DNA of 64,000 nt, from IMG/VR virus record IMGVR_UViG_3300025131_000005; one strand, written 5' to 3'. The stretch comes from a virus. Position 1 is the first letter of the stretch; each line of letters starts with the position of its first letter. The translations under genes and the position numbers were made by a program. Positions 6,620-54,304 of this stretch are shown one piece after another. Below the pieces are notes generated by a model. The model ran no database searches. It worked only from the letters and a program-made list of their open reading frames with translations, and was not told where the DNA came from.

Positions 6620-6835
6620 GTGACAGAAAAGAAACCCAAGATACCTTCATTTCTGTTTAGGATATATATATCCCGCCGCGAAGCAAAACTGATTTTGAAT
6701 CGTTTAAATTTAACTGATGCAGAAATTGAAGAGAAGCCTTGGAAGGGCCGATTACAACAAAATTTAGTTGATTTAATTAAGCGCTCTCTGGTCAAGAAAG
6801 ATGAGAAAATAATGGAGAAGAAAGATGCTAGCTGA
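6620..6835 (+). CDS. Hypothetical protein
   Basis: SD GAGGA, GTG start. Confidence 0.55.
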   Translation: MTEKKPKIPSFLFRIYISRREAKLILNRLNLTDAEIEEKPWKGRLQQNLVDLIKRSLVKKDEKIMEKKDAS

Positions 6836-7808
6836 TGTAGTTTTGGGATTGCAATATGGTGATGAAGCTAAGGGAAAAGTTACTCATTATTTGACTAAGT
6901 TTAAACACTATACCCACGTATTGAGATTTAACGGAGGCTGTAATGCAGGCCACACCATTTATCATAATGGTAAGAAGTTTGTCACTCATCATATTCCGGC
7001 TGGTGTTTTTTATGGTATTAAATCTATCATAGGACCGGGCTGTGTGGTTAGTCCCAAACATTTTTTTAAAGAAATAGAACAACTTAAAGCGGGTGGTATT
7101 GACGTTGAAGGAAAGATTTTTATAGCTGAAAATACACATGTAATAATGGAAGAACACATGGCGGAAGAGGCATCTGAGAGCAAGATTGGTACAACGAAAC
7201 GAGGCAACGGGCCTGCCTACCGTGACAAATATAATAGAACCGGTGTCAGAGCTTCTGAAATTCCTTCTCTTAAGCCCTATCTTATTAATTTATATGAAGA
7301 ATTTCATGGAGATACTTGTGTCAATATATTGTGTGAAGGCGCACAAGGCTTTGGATTAGATATTGACTGGGGTGATTATCCCTTTGTAACATCCAGTCAT
7401 TGTGGTCTAGGAGGAGTATTTTTGAACGGTGTTTCTCCTCATTGGATTAGAGATGTGTGGGGGGTTGCTAAAATGTACGAAACGTATGTAGGGTCCAAAT
7501 CCTTTGAGCCAGATCAAGCTGTTTTCCAATCTTTGCGTGATGTAGGCGAGGAATACGGTGCAACGACAGGACGTCCACGGCAGTGTAACTGGATGAACTT
7601 GGATTTCCTTCAACGGAACGCAAGATTTAACTCTGTTAGCAAACTGGTGATCAATAAGGTTGACGTGCTAAGGGAGCTGGGACAATGGAAGCTTTACCAT
7701 AAAAATGAACTACTTGAATTTGAAAATGAAGCGCAAATGTGCGAATACATCTCTGGTGTACTAAATAAGGTAGAGGTCTTTTTTTCCGACGATAAGAACA
7801 GCATCTAA
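6825..7808 (+). CDS. purA: Adenylosuccinate synthetase (short form)
   Basis: QYGDEAKGK, RFNGGCNAGHT, IGTTKRGNGPAY, EGAQG, YPFVTSS and EYGATTGRPR motifs. Confidence 0.96.
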   Translation: MLADVVLGLQYGDEAKGKVTHYLTKFKHYTHVLRFNGGCNAGHTIYHNGKKFVTHHIPAGVFYGIKSIIGPGCVVSPKHFFKEIEQLKAGGIDVEGKIFIAENTHVIMEEHMAEEASESKIGTTKRGNGPAYRDKYNRTGVRASEIPSLKPYLINLYEEFHGDTCVNILCEGAQGFGLDIDWGDYPFVTSSHCGLGGVFLNGVSPHWIRDVWGVAKMYETYVGSKSFEPDQAVFQSLRDVGEEYGATTGRPRQCNWMNLDFLQRNARFNSVSKLVINKVDVLRELGQWKLYHKNELLEFENEAQMCEYISGVLNKVEVFFSDDKNSI

Positions 7809-16846: not shown

Positions 16847-17917
16847 ATGGCTGTTGATTTCAAAACGTTTCGTTCCGTGGCATCCCACGTTATAGCTGTC
16901 AAGAAACCTGTCTTGCTGCGTGGTCGTCATGGAGTCGGTAAATCTGAGGTTGTATATCAGGTTGCTGAAGATCTTAAACTACCCGTTGTCGAACGTCGTG
17001 CGTCACAAATGACCGAGGGCGATCTCATTGGATTACCTAAGACTGACGGTGATATCACTTCTTTCTGTCCCCCTGATTGGTTTCATCATGCTTGTGAAAA
17101 AGCAGTGGTTCTCTTCTTTGATGAAGTTGATCGTGCTGTAACCGAAGTGCGTCAAGGTCTTTTCGAGTTGACTGATTCTCGCAAACTCTTTGGTAAACAC
17201 TTGCATCCGAAAACTGTCATCTTGGCTGCTGTTAATGGCGGCGAGCATGGTTCCCAATATCAGGTAGGGGAAATGGACCCGGCTGAATTGGACCGATGGA
17301 CTGTTTTTGATGTAGAGCCAAGCGTTGAAGATTGGTTGGATTGGGGCAAGAAAGAGATTGATTCTCTTATCTGGGACTTCATCAATCAGAATCGCTCTCA
17401 CTTGGAGCACTCTGAAGACTTTGAGCCAAACAAAGTTTATCCTTCACGTCGTTCTTGGAAGCGCTTGAATGATTGCTTGGTTGCTGCTAGTCTTCTGTCT
17501 GAGGAGCAAAAGCATAATGCTGACGTGTATCATCTTTCTAGTGCCTTTGTTGGCATGGAAGCCGCCGTTGCGTTCCACGATTTCGTTCAGAATTATGAAC
17601 GTCAAGTGACTGTTGAGATGATTCTTGATGAGGGACAAACCGAGAAGACTTCTGACTTTGGTATCAACGAGCATTGTGCGCTCATCGAGAAGATGGAAGC
17701 TACCGATACTTTTGTTGAACCTCTTGCAGAAGAACAGATTCAAAACTTGACGAATTACTTCGTAACGCTTCCTTCCGAGGCAGCAATGAAGCTTTGGACG
17801 GTTCTCGGTAAAGGCGATAATCAAAATGTAATCGCGTTGCACAAGGCAACTTCTGACGATGGTACTAAAGTTTCTGCTCGCATGGTTCAAATGCTAACCG
17901 GAAAGGAAAAGAAATAA
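16847..17917 (+). CDS. MoxR-like AAA+ ATPase
   Basis: Walker A GRHGVGKS, Walker B LFFDEVDRA, MDPAELDRW. Confidence 0.9.
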   Translation: MAVDFKTFRSVASHVIAVKKPVLLRGRHGVGKSEVVYQVAEDLKLPVVERRASQMTEGDLIGLPKTDGDITSFCPPDWFHHACEKAVVLFFDEVDRAVTEVRQGLFELTDSRKLFGKHLHPKTVILAAVNGGEHGSQYQVGEMDPAELDRWTVFDVEPSVEDWLDWGKKEIDSLIWDFINQNRSHLEHSEDFEPNKVYPSRRSWKRLNDCLVAASLLSEEQKHNADVYHLSSAFVGMEAAVAFHDFVQNYERQVTVEMILDEGQTEKTSDFGINEHCALIEKMEATDTFVEPLAEEQIQNLTNYFVTLPSEAAMKLWTVLGKGDNQNVIALHKATSDDGTKVSARMVQMLTGKEKK

Positions 17918-17923
17918 GAGTTA

Positions 17924-18030
17924 CGCAAAGGGTAAAAAGAGTTTATTTAATCAAACACCTTTCGCCTTCTAGGTGTCAAAACAAAAGCAGGATAGTAAGG
18001 CTGCTCTACGAGAAATCAGCCCCCTTTGCG
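17924..18030 (+). ncRNA. Candidate structured intergenic RNA or terminator-like element
   Basis: 9-bp closing stem CGCAAAGGG/CCCTTTGCG enclosing ACACCT/AGGTGT and AGCAG/CTGCT hairpins, followed by a T-rich tract. Confidence 0.35.
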
Positions 18031-18037
18031 CTTTTTC

Positions 18038-18066
18038 CTTTACTTAATCAAATCCGTTCCTATAGT
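18038..18066 (+). promoter_or_regulatory. Class-B promoter of the VWA gene
   Basis: TTTACT 18039-44, 16 bp spacer, TATAGT 18061-66. Confidence 0.7.
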
Positions 18067-18090
18067 TAGTATGTAACAGGGAGACAAACC

Positions 18091-19302
18091 GTGTTTAATT
18101 TGAATGACCATATATTTCGTTTGCTTCAACGCGAACCATTCTTCGCTGCCCTTTCCAGGCGCATCGAGAAGACAGAAAGCAAAGCCATTCCAACGGCTGG
18201 CGTTCGTGTGAACCCTGATACGGGTTATTATGAGATGATGTATAATGCAGACTTCTTTGAAAATCTGACTGATGAACAAAGGTCTGGTGTCTTGGTTCAT
18301 GAGTTTTATCATCTTGTTTTTGAACACGTAACTGGCCGTTTACCTGATGAACTAGAAGGCGCAATGGTTAAGCCTACGCGAAAGCAAATGGGTCTTTTTA
18401 AGCTTTGGAACATCGCAACTGATCTTTCAATCAATTGCCATATTGGCAAAAGTAAATTGCCTGAGAACTGTTGTTTTCCTGGTGTTGGTATGTTTGAAGA
18501 TTTCGCTGAATTTGAAACCGGGGAATTCTATTATGAAAAGCTCAAAGAGAAACTAGAAGAAGAAAAGCAAAAAGGCGAAGGTGGAGGCAAAGGCGAATTC
18601 GATCCTGATGCCGCTGGTCAGTTTGATGACCATGGCGAATGGGGTGATGAAGCTTGTGACGAGGCAACAAAGGAAATTGCCAAAGAACGCTTGAAAGAAG
18701 CCATGAAAGGTGCCGTGCAGGAAGCAGCCGGAAAGGGTTGGGGTTCTGTCTCAAGTAGTACCAAACGCGACATTATGGATAGGATATCCACTCGCGTTGA
18801 CTGGCGCAAAGTATTGCGATGGTTTGTTAAATGCTCACAACGTTCTAATAAGCGTTCAACGCCACGTCGATTGAATAAGCGTTATGCTTATATCCATCCG
18901 GGTAGGAAAACCGAACGGGTTGCGAACATTGCTGTTAGTATCGATCAGTCGGGCTCTGTTTCTGATGAAATGCTTGCACTCTTCTATGCTGAATTGAACA
19001 AGCTTGCTGATATTGCTAGCTTTACTGTTATTCCGTTCGATACGCAAGTCGCAGAAGACAAAGTGTATGCTTGGAAAAAGGGAGAGCACAAAAAGCGAGA
19101 GCGCGTTTTGCATGGAGGCACAGACTTTAATGCTCCCACCGAATATGTTAATAAAGGCAACTTTGATGGTCATATTGTACTGACTGATATGTGTGCCCCT
19201 AAACCTAAGCCTTCAAAATGTTCAAGAATGTGGATGACTGATAAAAGAAACGGAAGCAATCCATATTTTCAAACGAATGAAAGAATTGTTATTGTTGATT
19301 AA
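18091..19302 (+). CDS. DUF2201-like metallopeptidase plus VWA domain protein
   Basis: HEFYH motif, WNIATDLSIN, MIDAS DQSGS, GGTDF, VLTD. Confidence 0.88.
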   Translation: MFNLNDHIFRLLQREPFFAALSRRIEKTESKAIPTAGVRVNPDTGYYEMMYNADFFENLTDEQRSGVLVHEFYHLVFEHVTGRLPDELEGAMVKPTRKQMGLFKLWNIATDLSINCHIGKSKLPENCCFPGVGMFEDFAEFETGEFYYEKLKEKLEEEKQKGEGGGKGEFDPDAAGQFDDHGEWGDEACDEATKEIAKERLKEAMKGAVQEAAGKGWGSVSSSTKRDIMDRISTRVDWRKVLRWFVKCSQRSNKRSTPRRLNKRYAYIHPGRKTERVANIAVSIDQSGSVSDEMLALFYAELNKLADIASFTVIPFDTQVAEDKVYAWKKGEHKKRERVLHGGTDFNAPTEYVNKGNFDGHIVLTDMCAPKPKPSKCSRMWMTDKRNGSNPYFQTNERIVIVD

Positions 19303-23560: not shown

Positions 23561-24355
23561 TTGAGCGCTTTAACGAACTTACTTGCAACAACTTTAATCC
23601 TTCCCCAAGATGACCAGACATTGCACGCTTTGTCTTTCCAAGATAACCAAGACCGGGAACACCTTGATGCACTCGTCAAGTCCAATTTGCCCATGGCTGT
23701 CAAGGTTGCCATGAAGAACAAGCGCAACGGACTTGACCTTGAAGACCTAACCAGCGAAGCAGTCACGGGAATTCTCAGGGCAGCGGAAAGCTTTGATCCT
23801 GATTGCGGTGCTTCCTTCACGCATTATGCAAAGCAATGGATGCGGGCGAAGGTCCAAGATTATGTTCAAGCCAATTGTGGAACCATTCGCGTTGGCAGTC
23901 GTTCAGCGAAAAAGCTTTTCAGTGGCTTGAATCGTGTCCGTCGTCAATTCGGTTCCGACGTAAGCAATGAAGTTATAGCGCAAGAACTTGGAATTGATGT
24001 TGAAGATGTCAACGAGATTTTGCCCCTTATCACTGCCCGTGCAGCTTCTTTGAATGCTCCCATCGGTGACGGTTCCGAGTTGCATGAAGTAATCCCAAGC
24101 AAGCGAATTAATCAAGCCGAGGCAATGGAAAGAACAGAAACTTCCGAGGCAATTGCACAAGCATTAAAAGAGTTTTCGGATAACCTAAAACCTAATCATG
24201 CAGCAATCTTTAATAACCGAATTCTTGCAGACTATCACGGTGAAGAGAAAGCACATGCCGAGTCTTTTGGTGTAACGAAGCAACGTGTGCAGCAGATTGA
24301 AAAAGACTTGAATACAAAGTTGCAAAATCACTTTATTGCTTGCGGCCTTCGCTAA
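23561..24355 (+). CDS. Sigma70-family RNA polymerase sigma factor, RpoH/sigma32-like
   Basis: Region 2 LVKSNL...EDLTSEAVTGILRAAESFDPDCGASFTHYAKQWMRA; region 3 IAQELGI; region 4 FGVTKQRVQQIE. Confidence 0.9.
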   Translation: MSALTNLLATTLILPQDDQTLHALSFQDNQDREHLDALVKSNLPMAVKVAMKNKRNGLDLEDLTSEAVTGILRAAESFDPDCGASFTHYAKQWMRAKVQDYVQANCGTIRVGSRSAKKLFSGLNRVRRQFGSDVSNEVIAQELGIDVEDVNEILPLITARAASLNAPIGDGSELHEVIPSKRINQAEAMERTETSEAIAQALKEFSDNLKPNHAAIFNNRILADYHGEEKAHAESFGVTKQRVQQIEKDLNTKLQNHFIACGLR

Positions 24356-41844: not shown

Positions 41845-42089
41845 TGTCGACCGGTGAAGCCAAAATATCTCTTAGCAGTTTAAGAGATTATATTTTATTA
41901 GGCGTTGCTATAGTGAGCGCCATTGCTGGGATTATTTTTTGGGTGCAGGGCTCTAATGATGAAAAAATATCCAGATTGGAACACGATATTGAATTAGTCC
42001 AATTGGATATCGATAAAATAAGAGAAAATAATACCGAAATACTAAGAGTTATAGGACGTCTTGAAGGCAAGCTGGATAATTTAAAATGA
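41844..42089 (+). CDS. TM plus coiled-coil protein (holin-like architecture)
   Basis: N-terminal TM segment followed by a heptad coil. Confidence 0.55.
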   Translation: MSTGEAKISLSSLRDYILLGVAIVSAIAGIIFWVQGSNDEKISRLEHDIELVQLDIDKIRENNTEILRVIGRLEGKLDNLK

Positions 42090-43072
42090 TTAAAAATCTT
42101 TGGGAAGAATATGTCCGAGAAAACGAGATTGATTTACAATCTTTAATACCAAAGGATAATTTACAACCAAGTTTTTGGAATAATAAATTAGAACTTAAAA
42201 AATCTATAGCTGATAAATTAATGGAAATTGCTAAAGATTTTCTTGAATCTATTAATTTAGATACGGAAATCGAACTTAAAGATGTAACCATAACAGGCTC
42301 AATAGCTAGCTATAATTGGTCAAAATATTCTGATGTAGATCTTCATTTAATAATTGATTATAAAGATGTAGATGAAAATGAAGATTTGGTAAAAGAATAT
42401 TTTTCTGGAAAGATATTTGTGTGGAATACTAAACATGAAATCATGATGAACGATCATGAAGTCGAAGTATACGTACAAAATGAATCAGAGACGCATGTTT
42501 CTGGCGGCGTCTATTCAGTGATGCATAATAAATGGTTACAAAAACCAAAGAAGGAAGATGTTATAATAAATCTTGCAGTGGTAGAAAAAAAAGTACTTGG
42601 ATTAATCGATCATATCGAAAGATCTTTTGATTTATTTGAGCAAAAAAAATATCATCCCGCAATGGTTACTGCCAAAAGTATAAAAGAAAAAATTAAACTC
42701 TTAAGACGCTCTGGGTTATCTAAAGAAGGCATATATTCAATTGAAAATCTAGCTTTTAAGTTACTTCGAAGATCAGGGCATTTAAAACTTATTAATGATA
42801 TTATCACTAAGTCATATGATAGAGTTATGTCTTTACATAAAGATTTGCGAGGATCTTTGAAAGTTTTTATTGGAAGTACTGAGTCTGAGGCTAATGAATC
42901 TTATGATGCTCTTTTAGAAGAAGAAGGATATCAACGTCGGGTAAAACAGAGACATTATCTTATGAAAAAGAAATTAATTGGTCTTGGAGGAGAGAAAAAT
43001 ACCTCCCCTTATGTAAAGAAACCTAGTTATAAGAGATCAAAATCTGCTCCTGCTGGATTGGGGGGAAGTTAA
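42086..43072 (+). CDS. Pol-beta superfamily nucleotidyltransferase
   Basis: TITGSIASYNWSKYSDVDLHL (GS-x10-DxD) plus EVEVYVQ; leader-like NLWEEYVRE. Confidence 0.8.
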   Translation: MIKNLWEEYVRENEIDLQSLIPKDNLQPSFWNNKLELKKSIADKLMEIAKDFLESINLDTEIELKDVTITGSIASYNWSKYSDVDLHLIIDYKDVDENEDLVKEYFSGKIFVWNTKHEIMMNDHEVEVYVQNESETHVSGGVYSVMHNKWLQKPKKEDVIINLAVVEKKVLGLIDHIERSFDLFEQKKYHPAMVTAKSIKEKIKLLRRSGLSKEGIYSIENLAFKLLRRSGHLKLINDIITKSYDRVMSLHKDLRGSLKVFIGSTESEANESYDALLEEEGYQRRVKQRHYLMKKKLIGLGGEKNTSPYVKKPSYKRSKSAPAGLGGS

Positions 43073-45960
43073 TGAAATTAAAAGTTATATTAAAAGAAAA
43101 AAAGAACTTAAACGAAGTTGATACGGCCAAAGTAGCAGAATTAAGAAGAAGGATGAATAAGCCATCAGCTATTGAAAGAGAATTAGAAGTAGCATTTAAA
43201 AAAGCAGAAAAAAGTCCGCAAGAATTCTTTAATGTAATGCAACAAGTGATACAAAGAACAAAAAAGGATTTACAAAAATTAGCCAGTATATTTCCCACAA
43301 TGCCGCGTTTTTTAGAAACTATTAATAAAATTACAATTGGGGCAGCCGAAGACGCAGAAGATATAGAAGATTTTGGTGATGATATAGAAGACGCGCTTAG
43401 AAGTGATGAAAAAGAATCCGGAGAAGAAGAAGACGCGTTCGATAATATTGAATTAGAGGAAGCAGAAAAAGATATAGATTATGAAAAACTTTTCCAATTT
43501 GTAAAATCTCGGGAAGACGACGAAGAGAAAAGCAAAAAGTTGGGAAAAGTATTAGATACTCTTAATTTTTCCAGTATTGCCAAATTAATAGGAAATACAC
43601 CTTTTGAAGATCTTATTAAAAGTTATCAAAAGGATTTAGCAGAAGGATTAAAAGCAATTGCTAAAAAAGGCACAGATCCTGTAAATTATTTTATTAATAA
43701 TCCACAATTAGCCATGGATCTTCGAGGTGTCTATCAAATTATTAATCTATCTTTTGAATTTTCAAAAGTGATATTAAAAGTTCGCTCTAGAATGGCTGGT
43801 TTATATAAAAAAGGACGCGAAGATCCCGAATCTATAATTAATGCAATTGAAAAAAATCCAGATATTTTATTAAATAATTTTAAAGAAGAATTTAAGCATT
43901 TGAAAATATCTCCCATGTTAGCTAAGGGACAACAAACGTTTAATAACTTTTTTATAGGTCAAATATTCCAAGCTAGCGACGTTGCAACGGGTGGTGGATA
44001 TGCTAAGCAAGTAGCTGCTGTAGGAAGAGCTGGTAGTCGGTTAGATCGTCTTAAAAAAGCGGGAGCAGTTCGAGAAGAGGTATTAGGAGAACAAGATGCA
44101 GATGTCGATGCTGCAATGAAGGACCTACAATCAGATCCTCTTACACAAACGTTTGATGAATATGAAAAACAGGCTAAGGCCGAACTTAAATCTGCAGCAT
44201 CGAAAGAAAAAATAGATGAATTAACTGAATTAGCTAATAAGATTGTGACTGCTTTCGCTTCAAAACATAGGATGAGAGATGCACAGCATCGAGATTTTAA
44301 AGTAAAATTTATAAATTTAATTAATAATAATTTTGATAAAGCTGCTGGACAGTTAGAACGTATAATGGATTTCTTTAAAGAAGATATTGATAATATACTG
44401 GATGGTGCGATCGAGCCTCAAATTAAACGATGGATAAAATTAAGGCAAAGAGTCAAAAAAGCAAATATATCTCCGGAAAGGGCTGCAGCCTATATTGAGG
44501 AACTTAATAATACGATTAAATATTTAAATAAATTAAGAAAAGACTACGGTTTAAAACATTTGGATACTATTAATAAAAATCCTGCTAACTATGCTGAATT
44601 TCTAGAAGATGTTGAAGCTGCATTATCTAAAGAATTTCCTAATATAGAAAAACAATTAGGCGCAAAATTCAAAAGCATTAAACAGGGAAATGGTGCACCA
44701 GGCGAAGATAAAAAAGAAGATGAAAAAGAAAAAGAACCTGGGGATCCCAATTCTCTAAAGAATTTAAGTACTGGAAAAATTAACGTTGCGCTTAACCAAC
44801 TTAGAAATAAAGGACTAGGCGCAGATCAAATAACTAAACAAATAAATAATATAGCAAATGATATTAGTAAAAATGCAGGCCCCCAAAGAGATAATTTTAT
44901 AAATAAAGATTTACCAGTTATTAATAAAATTAAAGATGAAATAAGTAAAATACTTAAGGGAGATTTTACTAATTTAGTTAAAGAATCTAATAACTTAGTT
45001 TATATACATCCTATAACTTATGATTTACTTAAAAGATTAAGTATTAAATTTAAATCTAAAATAGATTATAATATTAAAGCTTTAAATGAAAATACATTAA
45101 ATATTAATAAATATAATTTGATTGTATCACAAATTTCTAATTTAGTAAAGAGCTATTCTGAAAAAGATAAAAAGAAACTTTTAAACTTTAATGAAAACAA
45201 ATACTTACAAGTCAACTCAAAATTAAGTCCGGAAGCGATTCGAGTAATAATCGATGCGTTTCATAGCTCCAAAGACACAATAGTACCATTAAAAGAAGAA
45301 TGTGTCATTAAAAATCACTCAGATAGAGACATGTCTCATTTAGAAGATATATTAACTCAGTTTTATCCATATGCCAAAAAAAAACTTGACTTTGAAGAAC
45401 CTGTAAATATTAATTTAGTTTCAGATGCAGAAAATTCTAAAGATCCATTTGGAAAAACTGCTTATTATAATCCAGAAGCAATGGAAATTTCTATATTTGT
45501 AGATGAAAGACATCCCAAAGATATGTTAAGATCAATTGCACACGAATTGGTGCATCATGCACAAAATTGTCGAGGCGAATTTGATAACGTCGGTAGTACA
45601 GAACCGGGTTATGCTCAAAAAGATTCTCATTTGAGAAATTTGGAAGGAGAAGCTTATTTATTAGGAAATGGATTTTTGGTTAGAGATTACGAGGATTTAC
45701 TTAAACTTAATTCAAAGGAGAAAAAAGAAGTGAAGAAATTAACTAAAGAAAGATTAGAAGCTGTCTTAACAAGAGTAGTTTCAGAAATTGTTGCAGAAGA
45801 AGGAGAAACAACTGTTTACAACAGAGATGAGGATGAAGAGTCCGCTTGTGTTGAAGAAGCAGAAGCTTCTACTCTTACTGAAGATATGGTTGAGGAATTA
45901 TTCAGAGTTCGTAAAGATGCTCTTATAAATGAAGCATTGAAAAAGAAATGGTGTAAGTAA
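43072..45960 (+). CDS. Large helical protein with C-terminal HExxH zincin domain
   Basis: RHPKDMLRSIAHELVHHAQN...EGEAY; many LxE motifs. Confidence 0.8.
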   Translation: MKLKVILKEKKNLNEVDTAKVAELRRRMNKPSAIERELEVAFKKAEKSPQEFFNVMQQVIQRTKKDLQKLASIFPTMPRFLETINKITIGAAEDAEDIEDFGDDIEDALRSDEKESGEEEDAFDNIELEEAEKDIDYEKLFQFVKSREDDEEKSKKLGKVLDTLNFSSIAKLIGNTPFEDLIKSYQKDLAEGLKAIAKKGTDPVNYFINNPQLAMDLRGVYQIINLSFEFSKVILKVRSRMAGLYKKGREDPESIINAIEKNPDILLNNFKEEFKHLKISPMLAKGQQTFNNFFIGQIFQASDVATGGGYAKQVAAVGRAGSRLDRLKKAGAVREEVLGEQDADVDAAMKDLQSDPLTQTFDEYEKQAKAELKSAASKEKIDELTELANKIVTAFASKHRMRDAQHRDFKVKFINLINNNFDKAAGQLERIMDFFKEDIDNILDGAIEPQIKRWIKLRQRVKKANISPERAAAYIEELNNTIKYLNKLRKDYGLKHLDTINKNPANYAEFLEDVEAALSKEFPNIEKQLGAKFKSIKQGNGAPGEDKKEDEKEKEPGDPNSLKNLSTGKINVALNQLRNKGLGADQITKQINNIANDISKNAGPQRDNFINKDLPVINKIKDEISKILKGDFTNLVKESNNLVYIHPITYDLLKRLSIKFKSKIDYNIKALNENTLNINKYNLIVSQISNLVKSYSEKDKKKLLNFNENKYLQVNSKLSPEAIRVIIDAFHSSKDTIVPLKEECVIKNHSDRDMSHLEDILTQFYPYAKKKLDFEEPVNINLVSDAENSKDPFGKTAYYNPEAMEISIFVDERHPKDMLRSIAHELVHHAQNCRGEFDNVGSTEPGYAQKDSHLRNLEGEAYLLGNGFLVRDYEDLLKLNSKEKKEVKKLTKERLEAVLTRVVSEIVAEEGETTVYNRDEDEESACVEEAEASTLTEDMVEELFRVRKDALINEALKKKWCK

Positions 45961-45971
45961 GGAGTTAAATT

Positions 45972-48860
45972 ATGGGTGGTTTTTATGGACATATGTCACA
46001 CTTGTACGATAATCCAAATCTGAAATTCTCCCAGATGATGGATATCTTTAAAAAAGCTGCCGATGGAGAACTAGAAGGCACCGAGAAAACTGATGGTCAA
46101 AATTTATATGTAGCTTATAATACCGCAGAAGGCAAAGCAAAGGCAGTCCGCAATAAGTCTAATATATCCGGCTATTATCGTGAAAAAAACGAAGAAACCG
46201 GTAAAACAGAACTGGTTAAAAAACACGAACCAGGAGGAATGGATGCAGCTGCTATAGCGAAAACGTTTGCAAAACGAGGATCCGTTGAGAAAGCTTTTGT
46301 GGAAGCATTTGAATCGTTCGAAGCAATTGCGCGATCTTTCCCAAAAGAAAAACAAACACAGATATTTGGCGATGGAGTTAATTCAATTGTATTCTATAGT
46401 GCTGAGATCCAGGATCCTAAGAACCCTAATGTAGTTAATTATGATTCGAGAGTATTCAATATTCACAGAGTTGAACCAGCTGTTGTTGATATAAAAACTG
46501 GAAAAGCTTTGGAAGATAGTGATATCAAAGGTAACGTACAAGAATTAGGAAAAGTATTAAATCAAGTTCAAAAAATGACCGGTGATCAAAAATTTAAAGT
46601 TCAGGTTAATGCTATTAGGCAGCTTGAAGGACTTTCTGATGGTGATCAATTAGACAGATACTTGGAGCGCTTAAACAATGTTATTAGCGATGCTGGTATA
46701 TCTGATGAACAAACAGTAGGTGAATATTTAATTGCTCGTTTATTGCCAATGATTAGTAATCAAGTTTCTTTGACACCAGAAAAAGAAGACTTGATTATTA
46801 AAAAGATGCTTGGAGTCAAAGGAATCAACATAAGAGAGATTAAAAAAGATTTAAATCCAACACAAGTAGAGACAATTAATATGCTTTTAGGCAATTCAAA
46901 AGCTTTAGTTCAAAATGCCATTCAGCCACTGGAGGACATAGTACACGATTTTTCAGTAGAAATGATCAAGAATCTAGAATCAGTTTTTGTTTTAGACAGA
47001 GGAAAGGAAGTAGCGCGCTTAAGAAAAGAACTTAGAACGGCAAAACTAGCAATAGAAAAATCCGGTCATGATGCCGCGATAGAAATATTAAAAAAACAAA
47101 TGGGGAAAATTAAAGATATAGAAAAAAATATTTCTACTGCCGCTGAAGGATTTGTTTTTGACTACGACGGACACACTTATAAACTTACTGGTAATTTTGC
47201 TCCAATGAATCAACTATTGGGCTTATTTAAGTATGGTAGAGGTAAAATCCCAGCAATGCAAAAGCTTTCGGAAGAGCTAGAAGATTCCATTGCATTAGTA
47301 CCTGGAGGTTTCAAACCCCCTCATGCTGGGCACTATCAACTAGCAGCTTGGGCCGGCAACCATCCAGGAGTCGACAAGGCAATTGTTCTTGTATCGCCAA
47401 AACCACGTGGTATAATTGGTCCGGAACAATCTAAACAAATTTGGGAAATCTATAGAGATAGGTTAGGTGGGAATTTTGATGTTCAAATTAGTGGTGAGAA
47501 TTCACCCGTAGGCGCAACTTATGAATTTGTCGACAATGACGCTCAGCCTGGACAGACTATCTATGTTATCAAAGGGGAAAAAGATCGTGGCGATGAAAGA
47601 TTTAAAGCCATGAGTGGAAGAAAAGAAGGTGTCGAGGTTAAAGAATTAGTATCTCCATCATTTGCAGGAGGCATAAGTGGGACTGTAATGAGAGATGAGT
47701 TTATTAAAAAAGGAAACAAAGAAGGTTTTCAAGCAGCATTGCCAAAAGATTTACCTCAAGAAGATAAAGATAAGATTTGGGATATTGTCTCCATTAAAGA
47801 AAGAGAAGAGACATTGAATGAAGGCGAGGAGGTAAAGAGCTTGCCGCTCGGTATATTTCTTGGGATAATCGAAGAAGTGGTTAGAGAAATGACTTCTGAA
47901 ACAGAAGAAGAACTATTTACTGAAGAAGAGTTAGAAGAAATTTCATCAATGGCTGGAGGATCTGTTACTGGCTATTCATTGCCATTAGGAGCTAAACCTC
48001 CTCACGGTAAGAAAAAGAAAAAAAGGACATATGAACAAATGGATCGTATTAAAGTTTATGAAGAAATTAAATTAAGAAACTTAATTCGCGAAGGAATTCA
48101 AAAGGTTTCACAAAAAATTGAAAAAGAAAAAGAACAAAATCTTGTAGAAGAAAAGAGGCTTAGGACTGTAATTCGAAAACTTATTCTTTCAGAAGGGACA
48201 ACAACTGGAGATAGCGACCCTGCTCCTCATGAATCAACCGGTATTAACTTTTTAGAAGATTTACTTAAGCAGATTATTCCTGTATTAGAACAATCGTATA
48301 AAAGACTCACTACTTCAAAGGATCAGAGAATATCTTTTCGTGAACATATCTTGAAGGCTATTGAGGATACGATTGTTCCATTGCAAGTAACTGATCAAGT
48401 TAACTTGCAAGAACAATTCGAAGAGGAAGAAGATATCACCGTAAGTGTAGAAGACGATCCGGATTTTATTGATATTCGTTCTGATAAAGAAGTAGAAAAT
48501 GATGAGAAAGAAGCGAATGGAGAACCTTTATCTGGCGAAGAAGAAATAGAGCAATTTGCAATTGAAGGAGAGGATGAAGTAGGAAGAAGTTCTGCTTTTG
48601 AGACGTTTAAGTCGATTTCGAAACAAATTGTTAATTTTTATGAAGAACTTTCTGGAAGCCCTGAAGATCAAAAGCTTTTTTATGAATATTTGTTGACAAA
48701 TCTAAAACTTTATTTTGATAAATTTGAAAATGACATGTCCTCAGTAGAGGAACCAAAGAGTCCTGATTATGGAAGCAGCCAATTGGATACAGGTGGTGAA
48801 GAAATAACCCCTTCTTCGGAAACAATGGGGCAAGAACAAGAATTAGGTTTAGGAGCTTAA
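45972..48860 (+). CDS. Multidomain protein: RNA-ligase-like nucleotidyltransferase, HxGH nucleotidyltransferase and acidic tail
   Basis: EKTDGQN (motif I), SAEI (III), AEGFVF (IV), TYKL (V); PGGFKPPHAGH and ISGTVMR. Confidence 0.75.
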   Translation: MGGFYGHMSHLYDNPNLKFSQMMDIFKKAADGELEGTEKTDGQNLYVAYNTAEGKAKAVRNKSNISGYYREKNEETGKTELVKKHEPGGMDAAAIAKTFAKRGSVEKAFVEAFESFEAIARSFPKEKQTQIFGDGVNSIVFYSAEIQDPKNPNVVNYDSRVFNIHRVEPAVVDIKTGKALEDSDIKGNVQELGKVLNQVQKMTGDQKFKVQVNAIRQLEGLSDGDQLDRYLERLNNVISDAGISDEQTVGEYLIARLLPMISNQVSLTPEKEDLIIKKMLGVKGINIREIKKDLNPTQVETINMLLGNSKALVQNAIQPLEDIVHDFSVEMIKNLESVFVLDRGKEVARLRKELRTAKLAIEKSGHDAAIEILKKQMGKIKDIEKNISTAAEGFVFDYDGHTYKLTGNFAPMNQLLGLFKYGRGKIPAMQKLSEELEDSIALVPGGFKPPHAGHYQLAAWAGNHPGVDKAIVLVSPKPRGIIGPEQSKQIWEIYRDRLGGNFDVQISGENSPVGATYEFVDNDAQPGQTIYVIKGEKDRGDERFKAMSGRKEGVEVKELVSPSFAGGISGTVMRDEFIKKGNKEGFQAALPKDLPQEDKDKIWDIVSIKEREETLNEGEEVKSLPLGIFLGIIEEVVREMTSETEEELFTEEELEEISSMAGGSVTGYSLPLGAKPPHGKKKKKRTYEQMDRIKVYEEIKLRNLIREGIQKVSQKIEKEKEQNLVEEKRLRTVIRKLILSEGTTTGDSDPAPHESTGINFLEDLLKQIIPVLEQSYKRLTTSKDQRISFREHILKAIEDTIVPLQVTDQVNLQEQFEEEEDITVSVEDDPDFIDIRSDKEVENDEKEANGEPLSGEEEIEQFAIEGEDEVGRSSAFETFKSISKQIVNFYEELSGSPEDQKLFYEYLLTNLKLYFDKFENDMSSVEEPKSPDYGSSQLDTGGEEITPSSETMGQEQELGLGA

Positions 48861-48862
48861 AA

Positions 48863-50494
48863 ATGAAGAAAAAAAAACAACTCTTAAAACTTTCTCGAAA
48901 AAACTTAGAAAGAATTGTTAGCAAGGAGCTTAATTCTACTCAAAGAAAAAATACTGCTTTGCTTAAATTACAGCTTGAAAATATACAAAAAGCGATAGAT
49001 GTGGTCGCAGAAGAAAACGATTCAGATCTCCGTGAACATTTTTTAGAACATCAAAATAATATATTTATTCCCATACTCGACGAGGCAACCGGCGAAAAAA
49101 TCTATGAAGCTAAAAATCTTGATGAATATCTTGCTGAATTTAAAGATAATTATGATTTATACGACGAGGTTTATCAGAGACTTGAAGAGTCTATTGATTA
49201 CGAACGTTCTCTTTATTTTGAAGAAAACGAAAATGATGTTTTAGCCGAGGTCGATTGGGCGAAAAGAGCTGCTGAAATTGAAGCGGGCGGCGAAGCTGAA
49301 GAATATGATGCTGAAGGCAGAAAGAAAGACATGCTTCAGAGAGGAAAAGAAAAAGTTAAAGGCGCAGTAGAGAAAGTAAAAAGTGCTTATAAAAAAGGGG
49401 CGCTTTATTTCTTTCTTAAGACAGTTCAGATGGGCTTAAAGGCTGCACTGGCAGCATCAAAAGGTATTTTCTCTTTAATTAAAAAAGTTATGTTACAAGC
49501 AGTATTTAAAGCAATTAAATCATGGGCAACTAGCAAAAAGAAAGTACAAGACGCTTTCAAAGAAGTCAAGGAGGGTGCACTCCAAGGCGGTTTTATGAAA
49601 CTCATGAGCAAAATTATGAAGCCCTTTATGTGGATTGCGAGCAAGCTTACAAAGGATGTAGAAAAACAAAAAGAGCTAGCACCGATTATTTTGAGCATCG
49701 TCGCATCATCTCTTATGTTGGCCTTTTTGTGGGCTATGGGCGGTATAAGTATATTTGGCGAAGCAACTACGGGTATGTCAAAAGCGATGACGGAGGTTGT
49801 TGAAGGCATGCCTTCCGAAGAAGCTGCTATGATGTGTATAACAGAGGGAATTAATTATAAAAATCGTGATCCTAAAAAGCAATTTCTTCTGGAGGGGTGT
49901 GGAATAATCTTACAGAACGGTGAAGAACTATCTAATGCCATGGCAAAAGCAGTAATGAAAGATCTTCTGGAAAGAGATATTGTGGGTAAAATAAATGAAG
50001 CAACCCAAACGGTACGTACCCAAGTTCAAGAGGTTATAAATGACAAACTAGTTCAGGATATTGATACATTTACTGGTTATGCTCAAACTAGTTTTGATCA
50101 ATCTCAGGAAGTGATTGCACTTATGCAGGGCGCTATCACACGCGGATCTGCGCATGGTATGGGTTTGGACTTAACCGAGAGCGGATGGTCATCGTTCGTA
50201 AACAAGAAGATTGCTGGATCAATAGCTCGCATCACTGCCCAAGCGCATGAAGCCCTTCCCGATGTACCTACGAGCGAACTTAAGGCGGTTGCAGATGGCA
50301 TCAAATGGACACATGCAATTGAATCCGTCGACGAGTTTGTTGATAGCCAGCATGTAGTAAATGATGTTCTCAAACATACTCGCGAATTTGCAAGCATGGT
50401 TTCGAAATCACAAATTGTCGGTGTTGATACCGGGGGTTTGACTAATGAACAAGTCTTAAGATTTAGAAAGCTTAGTGGTTTGTTGAAGAGCTAA
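48863..50494 (+). CDS. Large hypothetical protein with hydrophobic central segments
   Basis: ILSIVASSLMLAFLWAMGGISIF segment; LxE motifs. Confidence 0.75.
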   Translation: MKKKKQLLKLSRKNLERIVSKELNSTQRKNTALLKLQLENIQKAIDVVAEENDSDLREHFLEHQNNIFIPILDEATGEKIYEAKNLDEYLAEFKDNYDLYDEVYQRLEESIDYERSLYFEENENDVLAEVDWAKRAAEIEAGGEAEEYDAEGRKKDMLQRGKEKVKGAVEKVKSAYKKGALYFFLKTVQMGLKAALAASKGIFSLIKKVMLQAVFKAIKSWATSKKKVQDAFKEVKEGALQGGFMKLMSKIMKPFMWIASKLTKDVEKQKELAPIILSIVASSLMLAFLWAMGGISIFGEATTGMSKAMTEVVEGMPSEEAAMMCITEGINYKNRDPKKQFLLEGCGIILQNGEELSNAMAKAVMKDLLERDIVGKINEATQTVRTQVQEVINDKLVQDIDTFTGYAQTSFDQSQEVIALMQGAITRGSAHGMGLDLTESGWSSFVNKKIAGSIARITAQAHEALPDVPTSELKAVADGIKWTHAIESVDEFVDSQHVVNDVLKHTREFASMVSKSQIVGVDTGGLTNEQVLRFRKLSGLLKS

Positions 50495-52034: not shown

Positions 52035-52250
52035 ATGGAAGAGAATTTAATAACCATTATCGAGTGCCCTCATTGCTCGGATAAAAAGACCACTAAAACA
52101 TATAAAGGCAATTGTAAGTGTGGTAATCTATCTATTGACTCTCTTACGCCGAAGACAAAATGTAAATTTAAATATTTTACAACTGTTAGCTATAAACATG
52201 AACCACCAAATATATATGAAATCTCCTCATCGCTGGAGAAATTTCCATAA
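52035..52250 (+). CDS. Zinc-finger-like small protein
   Basis: CPHC...CKCG. Confidence 0.6.
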   Translation: MEENLITIIECPHCSDKKTTKTYKGNCKCGNLSIDSLTPKTKCKFKYFTTVSYKHEPPNIYEISSSLEKFP

Positions 52251-52961
52251 ATCTTCGAAAGTAGCTGAAACTGAAACATGGTGGAAGAAAGCATATACAG
52301 AATGTGTAACACCTACTATTTCACCTTTTCTATTTATTAAAGGAGATCCACTTGAACCACCCATTGCCGGAATACTATAAAAAGCGCGGCTATCAAGAAT
52401 ACCTAAAAATCTTCCCTCAAAAATAGGTATTACACCATTTTCAGCCAATCCACCCGGAGAGGCGATAGTAAATATTTTTTCTCCGTAGGTTGGCTTTTTA
52501 TTTGAGATTTTTAATGCTGGTCCTTCCAATTCATTACCTTTCATCATACAAATATCATTTTCGTCATCTAGTTTGAAAGGAACTACTTCATACTTATCCC
52601 AATCATTACCTTCTACACTAACAATATAATCATATTGAATATCGTCTCCTAATAATGTTGCCATGTGATCCAATTGCATTTGACGACATACATGTGCGAC
52701 AGTAAGAATAACTTTATTTCCTTTATTCAAGATTATTGATCCGGATCCCCATGCTCCACCAAGCTTGTTTTTTATGCACTCTGTGACACCATCTTCAAGA
52801 GTTTGGCATGCAGTACCCCATACGGAAACTTCTATTTTAACAAAAGATCTTTTTGCTTTTTTAAGTAAGTTTTGTGTATTATTAATATGTTGATTGATAC
52901 CACAACTTGATAAAAATAAGATTAGAAAACAAAAAAATATTTTTTTTATGTAAGACATCAT
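52227..52961 (-). CDS. Trypsin-like serine protease lipoprotein
   Basis: LSSC lipobox; LTVAHVC, NDICMM and GGSSGSP motifs. Confidence 0.9.
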   Translation of the reverse strand: MMSYIKKIFFCFLILFLSSCGINQHINNTQNLLKKAKRSFVKIEVSVWGTACQTLEDGVTECIKNKLGGAWGSGSIILNKGNKVILTVAHVCRQMQLDHMATLLGDDIQYDYIVSVEGNDWDKYEVVPFKLDDENDICMMKGNELEGPALKISNKKPTYGEKIFTIASPGGLAENGVIPIFEGRFLGILDSRAFYSIPAMGGSSGSPLINRKGEIVGVTHSVYAFFHHVSVSATFEDLWKFLQR

Positions 52962-52993
52962 ATTAGTAAATACTTATATTGTAAGGAAAATTG

Positions 52994-54304
52994 ATGAAAA
53001 AAACATACGTCTTAGATACCAACGTCCTTCTAACAGAAGCTAACTCTATATTTTCATTTAAAAATAACGATATAATAATTCCTTTAAAAGTTTTAGAAGA
53101 AATCGATAAACACAAGAAAAGACAGGATGGCGTTGGACAAAACGCTCGTAAATCGATACGTATTCTAGATGGACTCCGTACAAAAGGAAATTTACATAAT
53201 GGTATTCGTTTAGAGAAACGAAAAGGAATTTTATATGTTCGGATGTACGATCCATCTTTAATGCCAATCGGTTTAGACGCGTCAGATGCAGATAACCAAA
53301 TTATCACTACAGCAATCACTGAAAAACAAAAAAATCCGAAACGTAAAGTATCTGTTGTTTCGCGTGATATTAATATGCGTATTAAATGTGACGCATTACA
53401 AATATTAGCAGAAGATTATGATAGAGGTAAAATTGTTTCTACTATCGATGAACTTTACGACGGTTTTACCGCTCATTTAGTAGATACTCAAATAATAGAT
53501 AGATTTTATGAAGGTGAAGAGATAAGCGCCTCGATGATTGAGGGAAGATTTAGTCCAAATGAGTTTGTTATGCTGATTTCAAATTCTAATTCAAAACATA
53601 CCGCATTGGCCAAGTATGGAGGCGCTGTTGATAAATTAATAGCTATTAATGAATATAAAAATAACGGTATCTGGGGTTTACGTTCTAGAAATAAAGAACA
53701 AATGTTTGCTTTAGATCTTCTTATGGATGAAAGTATTCCTATTATTACTATTACAGGAAAAGCCGGATGTGGTAAGACTTTGCTAACATTAGCTGCGGGT
53801 TTAAATCAAGTACTGGATCAAGATAAATATAAAAAACTTGTTGTTTCGCGCCCCGTACAGCCAATTGGCAGAGATCTTGGATATTTGCCTGGTACTCTAG
53901 AAGAAAAAATGCATCCATGGCTCAAACCAATTGGAGATAATTTAGAATTTTTAATGGGTGATAAAAAAGATACAATGGAACTTTTAATAGAGCAGGGAAC
54001 AATTGAAGTTGAAGCTTTAACATATATTCGAGGCAGATCGATATCGAATGCTTTTGTAATTATTGATGAAGCTCAGAATCTTTCAGTTCACGAACTTAAA
54101 ACTATTGTTACAAGAATTGGTGAAAATTCTAAAATTGTTCTAACGGGAGATATTGAACAAATAGATAACACATATTTAGATTCAACATCTAATGGGCTTT
54201 CCTATGCTATTGAAAAGTTTAAAACCGAAGAAATAGCGGGTCATATAACACTTAAAAAGGGTGAAAGGTCTGAGGTTGCAACATTGGCGTCAAAAATACT
54301 TTAA
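52994..54304 (+). CDS. phoH: PhoH family protein with N-terminal PIN domain
   Basis: YVLDTNVLL, DADNQII, SRDINMRIK, GKAGCGKT, GYLPG, IRGRS, IIDEAQN and GDIEQID motifs. Confidence 0.95.
   Translation: MKKTYVLDTNVLLTEANSIFSFKNNDIIIPLKVLEEIDKHKKRQDGVGQNARKSIRILDGLRTKGNLHNGIRLEKRKGILYVRMYDPSLMPIGLDASDADNQIITTAITEKQKNPKRKVSVVSRDINMRIKCDALQILAEDYDRGKIVSTIDELYDGFTAHLVDTQIIDRFYEGEEISASMIEGRFSPNEFVMLISNSNSKHTALAKYGGAVDKLIAINEYKNNGIWGLRSRNKEQMFALDLLMDESIPIITITGKAGCGKTLLTLAAGLNQVLDQDKYKKLVVSRPVQPIGRDLGYLPGTLEEKMHPWLKPIGDNLEFLMGDKKDTMELLIEQGTIEVEALTYIRGRSISNAFVIIDEAQNLSVHELKTIVTRIGENSKIVLTGDIEQIDNTYLDSTSNGLSYAIEKFKTEEIAGHITLKKGERSEVATLASKIL

Follow-up and report, generated by a model that had tools for sequence, protein, structure and literature searches.

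A phage protein joining an RNA-ligase-type nucleotidyltransferase to a NadD/PPAT-like adenylyltransferase, with a probable link to DUF6267 of T4-like cyanophages

The enzymes that come closest to the protein described here are nick-sealing RNA ligases, namely T4 Rnl2 and Trypanosoma brucei REL1 of the Rnl2 family and Naegleria gruberi NgrRnl of the Rnl5 family, together with Trl1, the tRNA ligase of fungi and plants, in which a ligase is joined to a P-loop kinase and a 2H cyclic phosphodiesterase. In T4, the prohead protease gp21 acts inside proheads on sites of an (L/I)-x-E type consensus. Reviews have noted that cyanomyoviruses lack an identifiable g30, allowing that distant homologues might have gone unrecognised (PMC2984593, PMC1079782), and proteins of the NMNAT-like or cytidylyltransferase kind have been detected time and again in cyanophage virions by proteomics (PMC9602691, PMC10665884). 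Here, we describe a 962-residue protein encoded on a 64,000-nucleotide stretch of DNA from a marine T4-like phage (IMG/VR record IMGVR_UViG_3300025131_000005; hereafter, the window), in which a divergent nucleotidyltransferase of the RNA-ligase type is fused to an HxGH (“HIGH”) nucleotidyltransferase. The parts of the gene are as follows:

45972–48860 (+): open reading frame of 962 residues, comprising the ligase-like domain, the HIGH nucleotidyltransferase, a linker and a tail module
45972–47276 (+): N-domain, residues 1–435, covalent nucleotidyltransferase (RNA-ligase-like) fold lacking an OB domain
45987–46013 (+): GHMSHLYDN block near the N-terminus, just after Met-Gly-Gly; G6, H7 and H10 invariant
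46083–46103 (+): motif I, EKTDGQN, residues 38–44, between strands 35–39 and 43–50; K39, D41, G42 and N44 invariant
46146–46163 (+): basic VRNKSN, about 21 residues past K39; R60 and K62 invariant
46395–46469 (+): motif III, YSAEIQDP (residues 142–149, E145 invariant, strand 138–147), and the motif IIIa-like NVVNYD...NIHR (N153, Y157 and H165 invariant)
46527–47129 (+): alpha-helical insert of about 200 residues (about 186–386) between motifs IIIa and IV, from predicted secondary structure
47145–47192 (+): beta hairpin with motif IV, EGFVFD (residues 392–397, 47145–47162), and motif V, TYKLTG (TYK at residues 402–404, 47175–47183; K404)
47277–47831 (+): HIGH (HxGH) nucleotidyltransferase domain, NadD/PPAT-like
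47301–47333 (+): PGGFKPPHAGH, residues 444–454, with His451 at 47322
47394–47411 (+): SPKPRG, within the HIGH domain
47667–47693 (+): GGISGTVMR, residues 566–574
47832–48038 (+): acidic linker with a poly-Lys run and the conserved junction L653-E654-E655/I656-SSMAGGSVTGYS (slash, predicted cut) at 47928–47978
48039–48857 (+): tail module, residues about 690–962, isoelectric point 4.35, with the motifs PHESTGINFLEDLLK, YKxLTT..QRxSFRxH, FIDI, GRxxA..F and LFYEYLLTNLKLYFDKFE

Each of the motifs that a sequence-only reading of the window had picked out (KxDG, SAEI, EGFVF, YK, PGGFKPPHAGH and ISGTVMR) proved to be where that reading had placed it. In an alignment of 35 homologous sequences (44–78% identity), K39, D41, G42, N44, E145, E392 to D397, T402, Y403, K404, G445, P449 and H454 were all invariant, and because these residues are retained across the 35 homologues, the motifs are not chance matches. 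The helical insert likewise holds invariant residues (P319, E321 and H325-D326-F327), and in the predicted structure EGFVFD lies on strand 393–398 and TYK on strand 401–405. K39 is predicted to be the AMP-accepting lysine, and VRNKSN is a candidate motif Ia. The identical protein is present in an independent ENA contig (P0001). Pfam and PHROG searches with the whole 962-residue protein returned nothing significant, and scans for promoters, terminators and T4 late promoters gave no informative signal.

The sequence-only reading had held that it would be refuted if structure prediction showed no ligase fold, and we observed a ligase-type nucleotidyltransferase fold in the model. Folded alone, the N-domain was predicted with a mean local confidence (predicted local distance difference test) of 85.4 and a predicted template-modeling (TM) score of 0.80, and it has the KxDG motif I of the superfamily with its lysine, followed along the strands of the pocket by motifs III, IV and V in turn. 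The best Foldseek matches in the PDB were Rnl3, Rnl2, Trl1, Rnl1, Rnl5 and DNA ligases, each weak when taken singly (E = 2e-3 and up); RNA ligases outscored DNA ligases (8.5 versus 6–7), and the nearest structures were nick-sealing RNA ligases. The OB fold that follows the nucleotidyltransferase domain in DNA ligases and capping enzymes was not found, as the model of residues 1–640 contains no OB-like strands and the nucleotidyltransferase domain runs directly into the Rossmann-like HIGH domain. In sequence comparisons, Pfam RNA_ligase (PF09414) gave no match to the window protein at E ≤ 1, phmmer and profile searches against the PDB found no ligase, and hhalign of the family against the single sequence of T4 Rnl2 was not significant (E = 0.18), with motif I aligned on Rnl2 EKIHGTN in a low-confidence alignment. 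We conclude that the N-domain, whose catalytic motifs are all intact, belongs with the covalent (lysine) nucleotidyltransferases of the ATP-dependent RNA-ligase type as a divergent form and that, judged by sequence, it lies outside every defined Rnl family.

The second domain carries an (H/T)xGH motif after its first strand, ISxTxxR near its C-terminus and a Rossmann-like PPAT/NadD fold, and is thus a member of the HIGH superfamily. Its best sequence-profile matches are NadD enzymes (E = 6.5e-8), with PGGFKPPHAGH and GGISGTVMR aligned to NadD GGTFNPVHLAH and ISSTKIR; structural matches slightly favor PPAT, and the window sequence of this domain alone stays below the Pfam threshold (E = 0.3). 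It is a NadD/PPAT-like adenylyltransferase with HxGH and ISxTxxR intact. The motifs, the predicted folds and the structure matches support the fusion that had been proposed, in which a covalent nucleotidyltransferase of the ligase/capping type is joined to one of the HxGH type. Among close relatives, this second domain is interchangeable between an HxGH type, a GxxH type (PGRFQPMGxHH) and a TKAH type (PPTKAH).

Such a domain could mean that the protein serves mainly in the salvage of NAD+ or another dinucleotide cofactor, with the HIGH domain acting as an NMNAT of the phage to replenish NAD+ that host defenses have depleted, and the ligase-like domain adenylylating a small molecule or a protein. 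The NadD profile matches with both motifs aligned favor this, as do the source records, which label relatives NMNAT, and the proposal that virion-carried NMNAT-like proteins modulate NAD (PMC9602691). We nevertheless consider it distinctly unlikely. In addition to the slight structural preference for PPAT, no NAMPT was found in five complete T4-like relatives (CheckV 100%, 184–193 kb), for which reason a NAMPT and NMNAT salvage pair of the NARP2-like kind was rejected for the window lineage, and salvage leaves unexplained why the HIGH domain is constantly coupled to an intact ligase-type active site and why a 2H phosphoesterase is fused to one relative (see below).

The pairing of the two domains turned out to be both widespread and mobile. 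An exhaustive phmmer search found 1,553 representatives of 50%-identity clusters with the N-domain, 352 of them at E ≤ 1e-30, in proteins from 417 to 2,075 residues long in which the N-domain is sometimes internal; the domain also occurred on 417 IMG/VR contigs, and the Atlas clusters that contain it are viral. The family is apparently restricted to phages. The order of the domains can be permuted, as in Microcystis phage Mel-JY01, where the HIGH domain comes first and the ligase-like domain second. Since the two are fused in both orders and also occur as adjacent genes, their pairing is evolutionarily meaningful, and the pair is a conserved functional unit. One family member (P0388) combines the N-domain and the HIGH domain with a 2H phosphoesterase in which the two HxTx motifs are intact, and a fusion to an M23 peptidase also occurs. 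In BFVD, the 971-residue protein A0A218ML49 of an uncultured virus, which resembles the N-domain in structure, is labeled SET domain-containing protein, which suggests that the superfamily has further fusion partners, e.g., a protein methyltransferase. Exchange of the module was visible in the window itself:

45775–47270 (+): block of 1.5 kb, 99–100% identical in DNA to IMG/VR contig L003

Outside this block, identity to L003 is 68–91% per 150-nucleotide window (mostly ~75–85%) and the second domain of L003 is of another type, a pattern that marks the N-domain module as recently exchanged between the two, with a breakpoint that coincides exactly with the boundary of the domain.

The acidic helical tail, the large mosaic neighbors and the detection of relatives in virions might also bring to mind a virion protein with a structural or scaffolding role and degenerate enzyme-like domains. 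This is barely credible, as more than 1,000 sequences at ~40–50% identity share the catalytic residues of the two domains without variation, an invariance that indicates selection for catalysis. The constancy of the pair, obligate and seen in both fusion orders, could instead be taken to mean that the two domains work in series on one polynucleotide end, as in the two-step nucleotide-transfer enzyme suggested from the sequence alone, or that a dinucleotide produced in situ is used by the ligase. The HIGH domain might, for example, adenylylate a 5′-phosphate end directly or make an AMP donor that is consumed by K39. The reaction of HIGH enzymes (5′-phospho-nucleotide + ATP → A(5′)pp(5′)N) is chemically that of ligase step 2, which would suit such an arrangement if it carries over to the window protein. 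We regard this new ligation chemistry as decidedly improbable, as it is without precedent and the ligase domain retains the full set of adenylylation motifs, which would make a relay from the HIGH domain redundant.

Scanning with the tail module revealed that three types of N-domain precede the same unit of HIGH domain and tail: type A, that of the window; type B, with GHMxHPFD...KIDGVN; and type C, with NTHLTHLEE...KWDGAP, which matches Pfam DUF6267 (PF19782, E = 1e-95). Types A and B are plainly homologous (hhalign 99.9%, E = 3.5e-37). The hhalign comparisons with type C were not significant (A–C, E = 0.045; B–C, E = 0.0011 and 0.016), and the DUF6267 hidden Markov model (cut-off 27 bits) had no match on the window; run on the genomes of the five relatives it had no match at E ≤ 1, in a search where the positive control was silent as well. 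All three types, however, have the same motifs in register and in the same order (HxxH, KxDG, a basic motif, N-x-x-x-Y, EGxV and K), and the equivalent of the motif I lysine is invariant in types B and C too. In a Foldseek search of BFVD, the window model matched the DUF6267 protein of S-PM2 (A0A0M6VVW4) with a match probability of 1.0, E = 1.7e-3 and a TM score of 0.39, and the matches also included phage proteins that stand alone, with viral proteins annotated as RNA ligases interleaved among them. DUF6267 is thus probably the cyanophage branch of the same ligase-like superfamily.

The gene arrangement of DUF6267 mirrors that of the window. The domain occurs in 466 phage records, mostly of T4-like cyanophages but also of HTVC008M, Melnitz and DLP6, and the HIGH-type “cytitidyltransferase” in 557. 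S-PM2d138 is a fusion of DUF6267 (E = 1.6e-111) with CTP_transf_like, and the coordinates place the two genes adjacent or close to each other in P-HM2, ACG-2014h, S-8S56, Melnitz and DLP6. As in the window, an N-domain of ~400 residues is therefore accompanied by a HIGH nucleotidyltransferase, fused (S-PM2d138) or nearby (HTVC008M, AGE60461/AGE60464). In uncultured phages, the DUF6267 pair is followed by the same tail gene as in the window family, whereas the cultured DUF6267 phages lack the tail module. The stand-alone “cytitidyltransferase” partners of HTVC008M (L164:8332-10119) and DLP6 (L165:7640-9805), of 596–722 residues, bear a long C-terminal extension, in HTVC008M a DUF5824, which may substitute for the tail of the window protein. 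We found no paper that describes either the fusion or DUF6267.

An attractive alternative is that the protein is the DNA ligase, for replication or repair, that marine T4-like phages seem to be “missing.” The N-domain would then seal DNA nicks such as those between Okazaki fragments and the HIGH domain would make or regenerate its nucleotide cofactor. The reported lack of an identifiable g30 in cyanomyoviruses fits this idea, the five complete relatives contain no PF01068, PF01653, PF09414 or PF09511 ligase, and the DUF6267 gene comes after gp43-UvsX-gp41 in both S-PM2 and HTVC008M. A DNA ligase is still unlikely in our judgment. In Stenotrophomonas phage DLP6, DUF6267 and the “cytitidyltransferase” are encoded alongside a gp30 DNA ligase and an RNase H, and because gp30 and the pair occur together they are not complementary, which weakens a simple replacement of gp30. 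The higher structural scores of RNA ligases and the lack of an OB or DNA-clamping domain also speak against it; the window gene sits among mosaic zincin and pol-beta-nucleotidyltransferase proteins and not among replication genes, and virion association and protease junctions (see below) would ill suit an enzyme of the replisome.

The C-terminal part of the protein was found to be a module of its own. In 40 of the 81 related loci, the counterpart of residues ~690–950 is a separate open reading frame of 244–344 residues, which typically begins 0–12 nucleotides past a shorter core gene; in the others, it is fused. It carries its own invariant motifs (alignment A3), was detected in 343 viral contigs, and has no relative in Pfam, PHROG or the PDB, while a search of the ESM Atlas returned viral clusters only. 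Near the ligase-like/HIGH gene of the cultured phages S-PM2, HTVC008M, Mel-JY01 and immuto, the tail was not found. Described earlier as long, acidic and LxE-rich, the tail is acidic (23.8% Asp + Glu) but not enriched in L/I-x-E (7 occurrences versus 9.6 ± 2.6 in shuffles), and the idea that it is a protease substrate by virtue of LxE richness was rejected. It is a conserved acidic helical module, not a low-complexity sequence.

Proteolytic processing, which the sequence-only reading had suggested, found support outside the tail, at two conserved hydrophobic-x-E junctions that flank the core enzyme. We surveyed 136 independent representatives, among which 45 proteins begin with M-GG. In the proteins with sequence N-terminal to the GGxxGH(M/L)xH block (a short leader in 57, an internal domain in 7), the first junction reads hydrophobic-x-E/GG without exception, in 64 of 64, as compared to 3.1% before other GG dipeptides. 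At the second junction, 71 of 95 family members have [LIMV]-x-E just before the linker motif (L653-E654-E655/ISSMAGG in the window), against a background of 5.1%. Both junctions fit the consensus of T4 gp21, and a gp21-type prohead protease is encoded by all five complete relatives. As the window protein lacks a leader and begins with MGG, the linker junction is the only one of the two that concerns it. Within the window, EISSMAGG is present only in this protein, and the idea that it marks other window proteins for processing in general was rejected. A virion protein of S-CREM2 is homologous to the HIGH domain of S-PM2d138 (E = 1.4e-25). Together, the junctions, the M23 fusion, a neighboring zincin and the virion proteomes, which contain distant relatives of the HIGH domain, point to an enzyme that is packaged in the capsid and injected, much as polyvalent proteins are (PMC5512222).

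We propose that the best explanation is a polynucleotide end-sealing enzyme of the RNA type, probably delivered by the capsid and coupled to a NadD-like adenylyltransferase, a reading that we hold to be about evenly poised between right and wrong. In this scheme, K39 would take AMP from ATP and pass it to the 5′-phosphate end of a polynucleotide, which would then be sealed, RNA-type nick or end sealing being the likeliest activity of the ligase-like domain. The HIGH domain would join ATP to a small phosphorylated substrate, similar to nicotinamide or nicotinic acid mononucleotide, to yield an adenylylated dinucleotide, e.g., NAD+, that would serve the same task of repair or counter-defense. 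Many family members, and probably the window protein at L653-E654-E655/I656, would be cut at hydrophobic-x-E by a T4-type prohead protease; such cutting would imply capsid packaging of the core enzyme and its delivery along with the DNA, and it could then act from the very start of infection.

RNA repair, raised as a possibility from the sequence alone, gains indirect support from the 2H fusion, from the Zeta/AAA_33 P-loop kinase that adjoins DUF6267 in HTVC008M and from the RNA ligases as nearest structures. Weighing against it, neither KptA nor 2H was found in the window’s lineage and the kinases are distant; relatives thus yielded no complete RNA-repair set. The second-messenger role that had been suggested alongside found no support. 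A bolder version of end sealing would have the ligase-like and HIGH domains form one relay, a new capsid-delivered ligation system that is the long-sought ligase of marine T4-like phages (Kyanoviridae) and that acts, seconds after injection, on the genome as it enters or on RNAs cleaved by the host; this is quite improbable as it stands.

The genes directly upstream are as follows:

45304–45711 (+): zincin module (HELVHH at 45541–45558), residues ~745–880 of the upstream open reading frame 43072–45960; DUF6647, E = 2e-5
42086–43072 (+): weakly pol-beta nucleotidyltransferase-like open reading frame; MTPAP-like (E = 0.0039) and NTP_transf_2 (E = 0.0078), neither passing the threshold; phrog_36119, E = 3.6e-39

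The upstream open reading frame 43072–45960 (+) likewise encodes exactly 962 residues and is mosaic, with the C-terminal zincin as its only recognizable part. The zincin is a conserved neighbor in related loci, free-standing (130–230 residues) in many of them, and the pol-beta-like frame adjoins a family gene in 11 loci; its identification as RlaP found no support, since there was no match to PF10127. In Flavobacterium phage immuto, a pol-beta-nucleotidyltransferase-like region, a HIGH domain and a zincin homologous to that of the window (E = 2.5e-21) make up a single fusion. A coiled-coil protein of ~86 residues (N-terminus, e.g., M..NNRWKEFILNEG) lies directly 5′ of the core gene in 34 related loci (e.g., L036:1623-1880), and the window has no separate copy of it. 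Directly downstream, the open reading frame 48863–50494 (+; 543 residues) has no homologue in 80 related loci and is replaced in L003 by an unrelated shorter sequence, which indicates a hypervariable slot beside the conserved module. Further on, a trypsin-like serine peptidase (52227–52961, −; Trypsin_2, E = 4e-11) and a PIN_4 + PhoH fusion (52991–54304, +) are conserved a few genes 3′ of the target in 29–35 related loci.

Elsewhere in the window, 6825–7808 (+) encodes a 327-residue homologue of adenylosuccinate synthetase, short for PurA (PF00709, E = 7.7e-84; best PHROG, phrog_1211, “2-aminooxy adenylosuccinate synthetase,” E = 9.7e-70), which could be a PurZ-like enzyme of the 2-aminoadenine (Z-base) DNA pathway. 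At 16847–19302 (+), a MoxR-like AAA_5 ATPase is followed by a DUF2201_N/VWA putative metallopeptidase, a pairing of MoxR-like ATPase and VWA that is common in cells and unusual for a phage. A sigma-70-family factor with regions 2 and 3 is encoded at 23561–24355 (+; phrog_351, E = 5.7e-36) in this T4-like phage.

If the proposed reading is true, the family would constitute a new and very abundant clade of ligases with an architecture of its own (helical insert, no OB domain and an obligate HIGH partner), of interest to RNA-repair enzymologists and with potential as a molecular-biology tool. It would give a testable function to DUF6267 and the “cytitidyltransferase,” which are conserved in nearly every T4-like cyanophage and pelagiphage, phages that rank among the most numerous viruses of the ocean. 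It would also bear on the lack of an identifiable ligase in these phages, remarked on in reviews since 2005–2010. Should the protease junctions be real, enzymes that enter the cell together with the phage DNA would gain a new class, relevant to counter-defense against anticodon nucleases or NAD-depleting systems. What is new here is the tail as a separate module, the apparently phage-only family with its domain exchange, the probable link to DUF6267, the conserved Φ-x-E junctions (Φ, hydrophobic) and the fusions to 2H, M23 and zincin.

Compared to the Rnl2 and Rnl5 ligases, the window protein has the ~200-residue helical insert between motifs IIIa and IV, adds an invariant N-terminal G-H-x-x-H block that is without counterpart in known ligases, and has one Lys in motif V (YKxT). 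It lacks both the C-domain of Rnl2 and the N-terminal OB-like domain of Rnl5, and its N-domain family is always paired with a HIGH nucleotidyltransferase, which in turn is only 18–20% identical to NadD/NMNAT and PPAT (CoaD). Unlike in Trl1, the kinase and 2H partners are sporadic in the phage family and not universal, and the HIGH domain has no counterpart in Trl1. With the polyvalent proteins of phages and the capsid-targeted, gp21-processed internal proteins of T4 (Alt and IPI-III), the window protein shares the combination of several unrelated enzymatic domains in one polypeptide, the association with a zincin metallopeptidase and a pol-beta nucleotidyltransferase, the predicted release at L/I-x-E and the likely packaging in the capsid. 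The polyvalent-protein domains described in the part of that work consulted include no ligase-type or HIGH nucleotidyltransferase (PMC5512222), and the window protein bears no N-terminal targeting leader.

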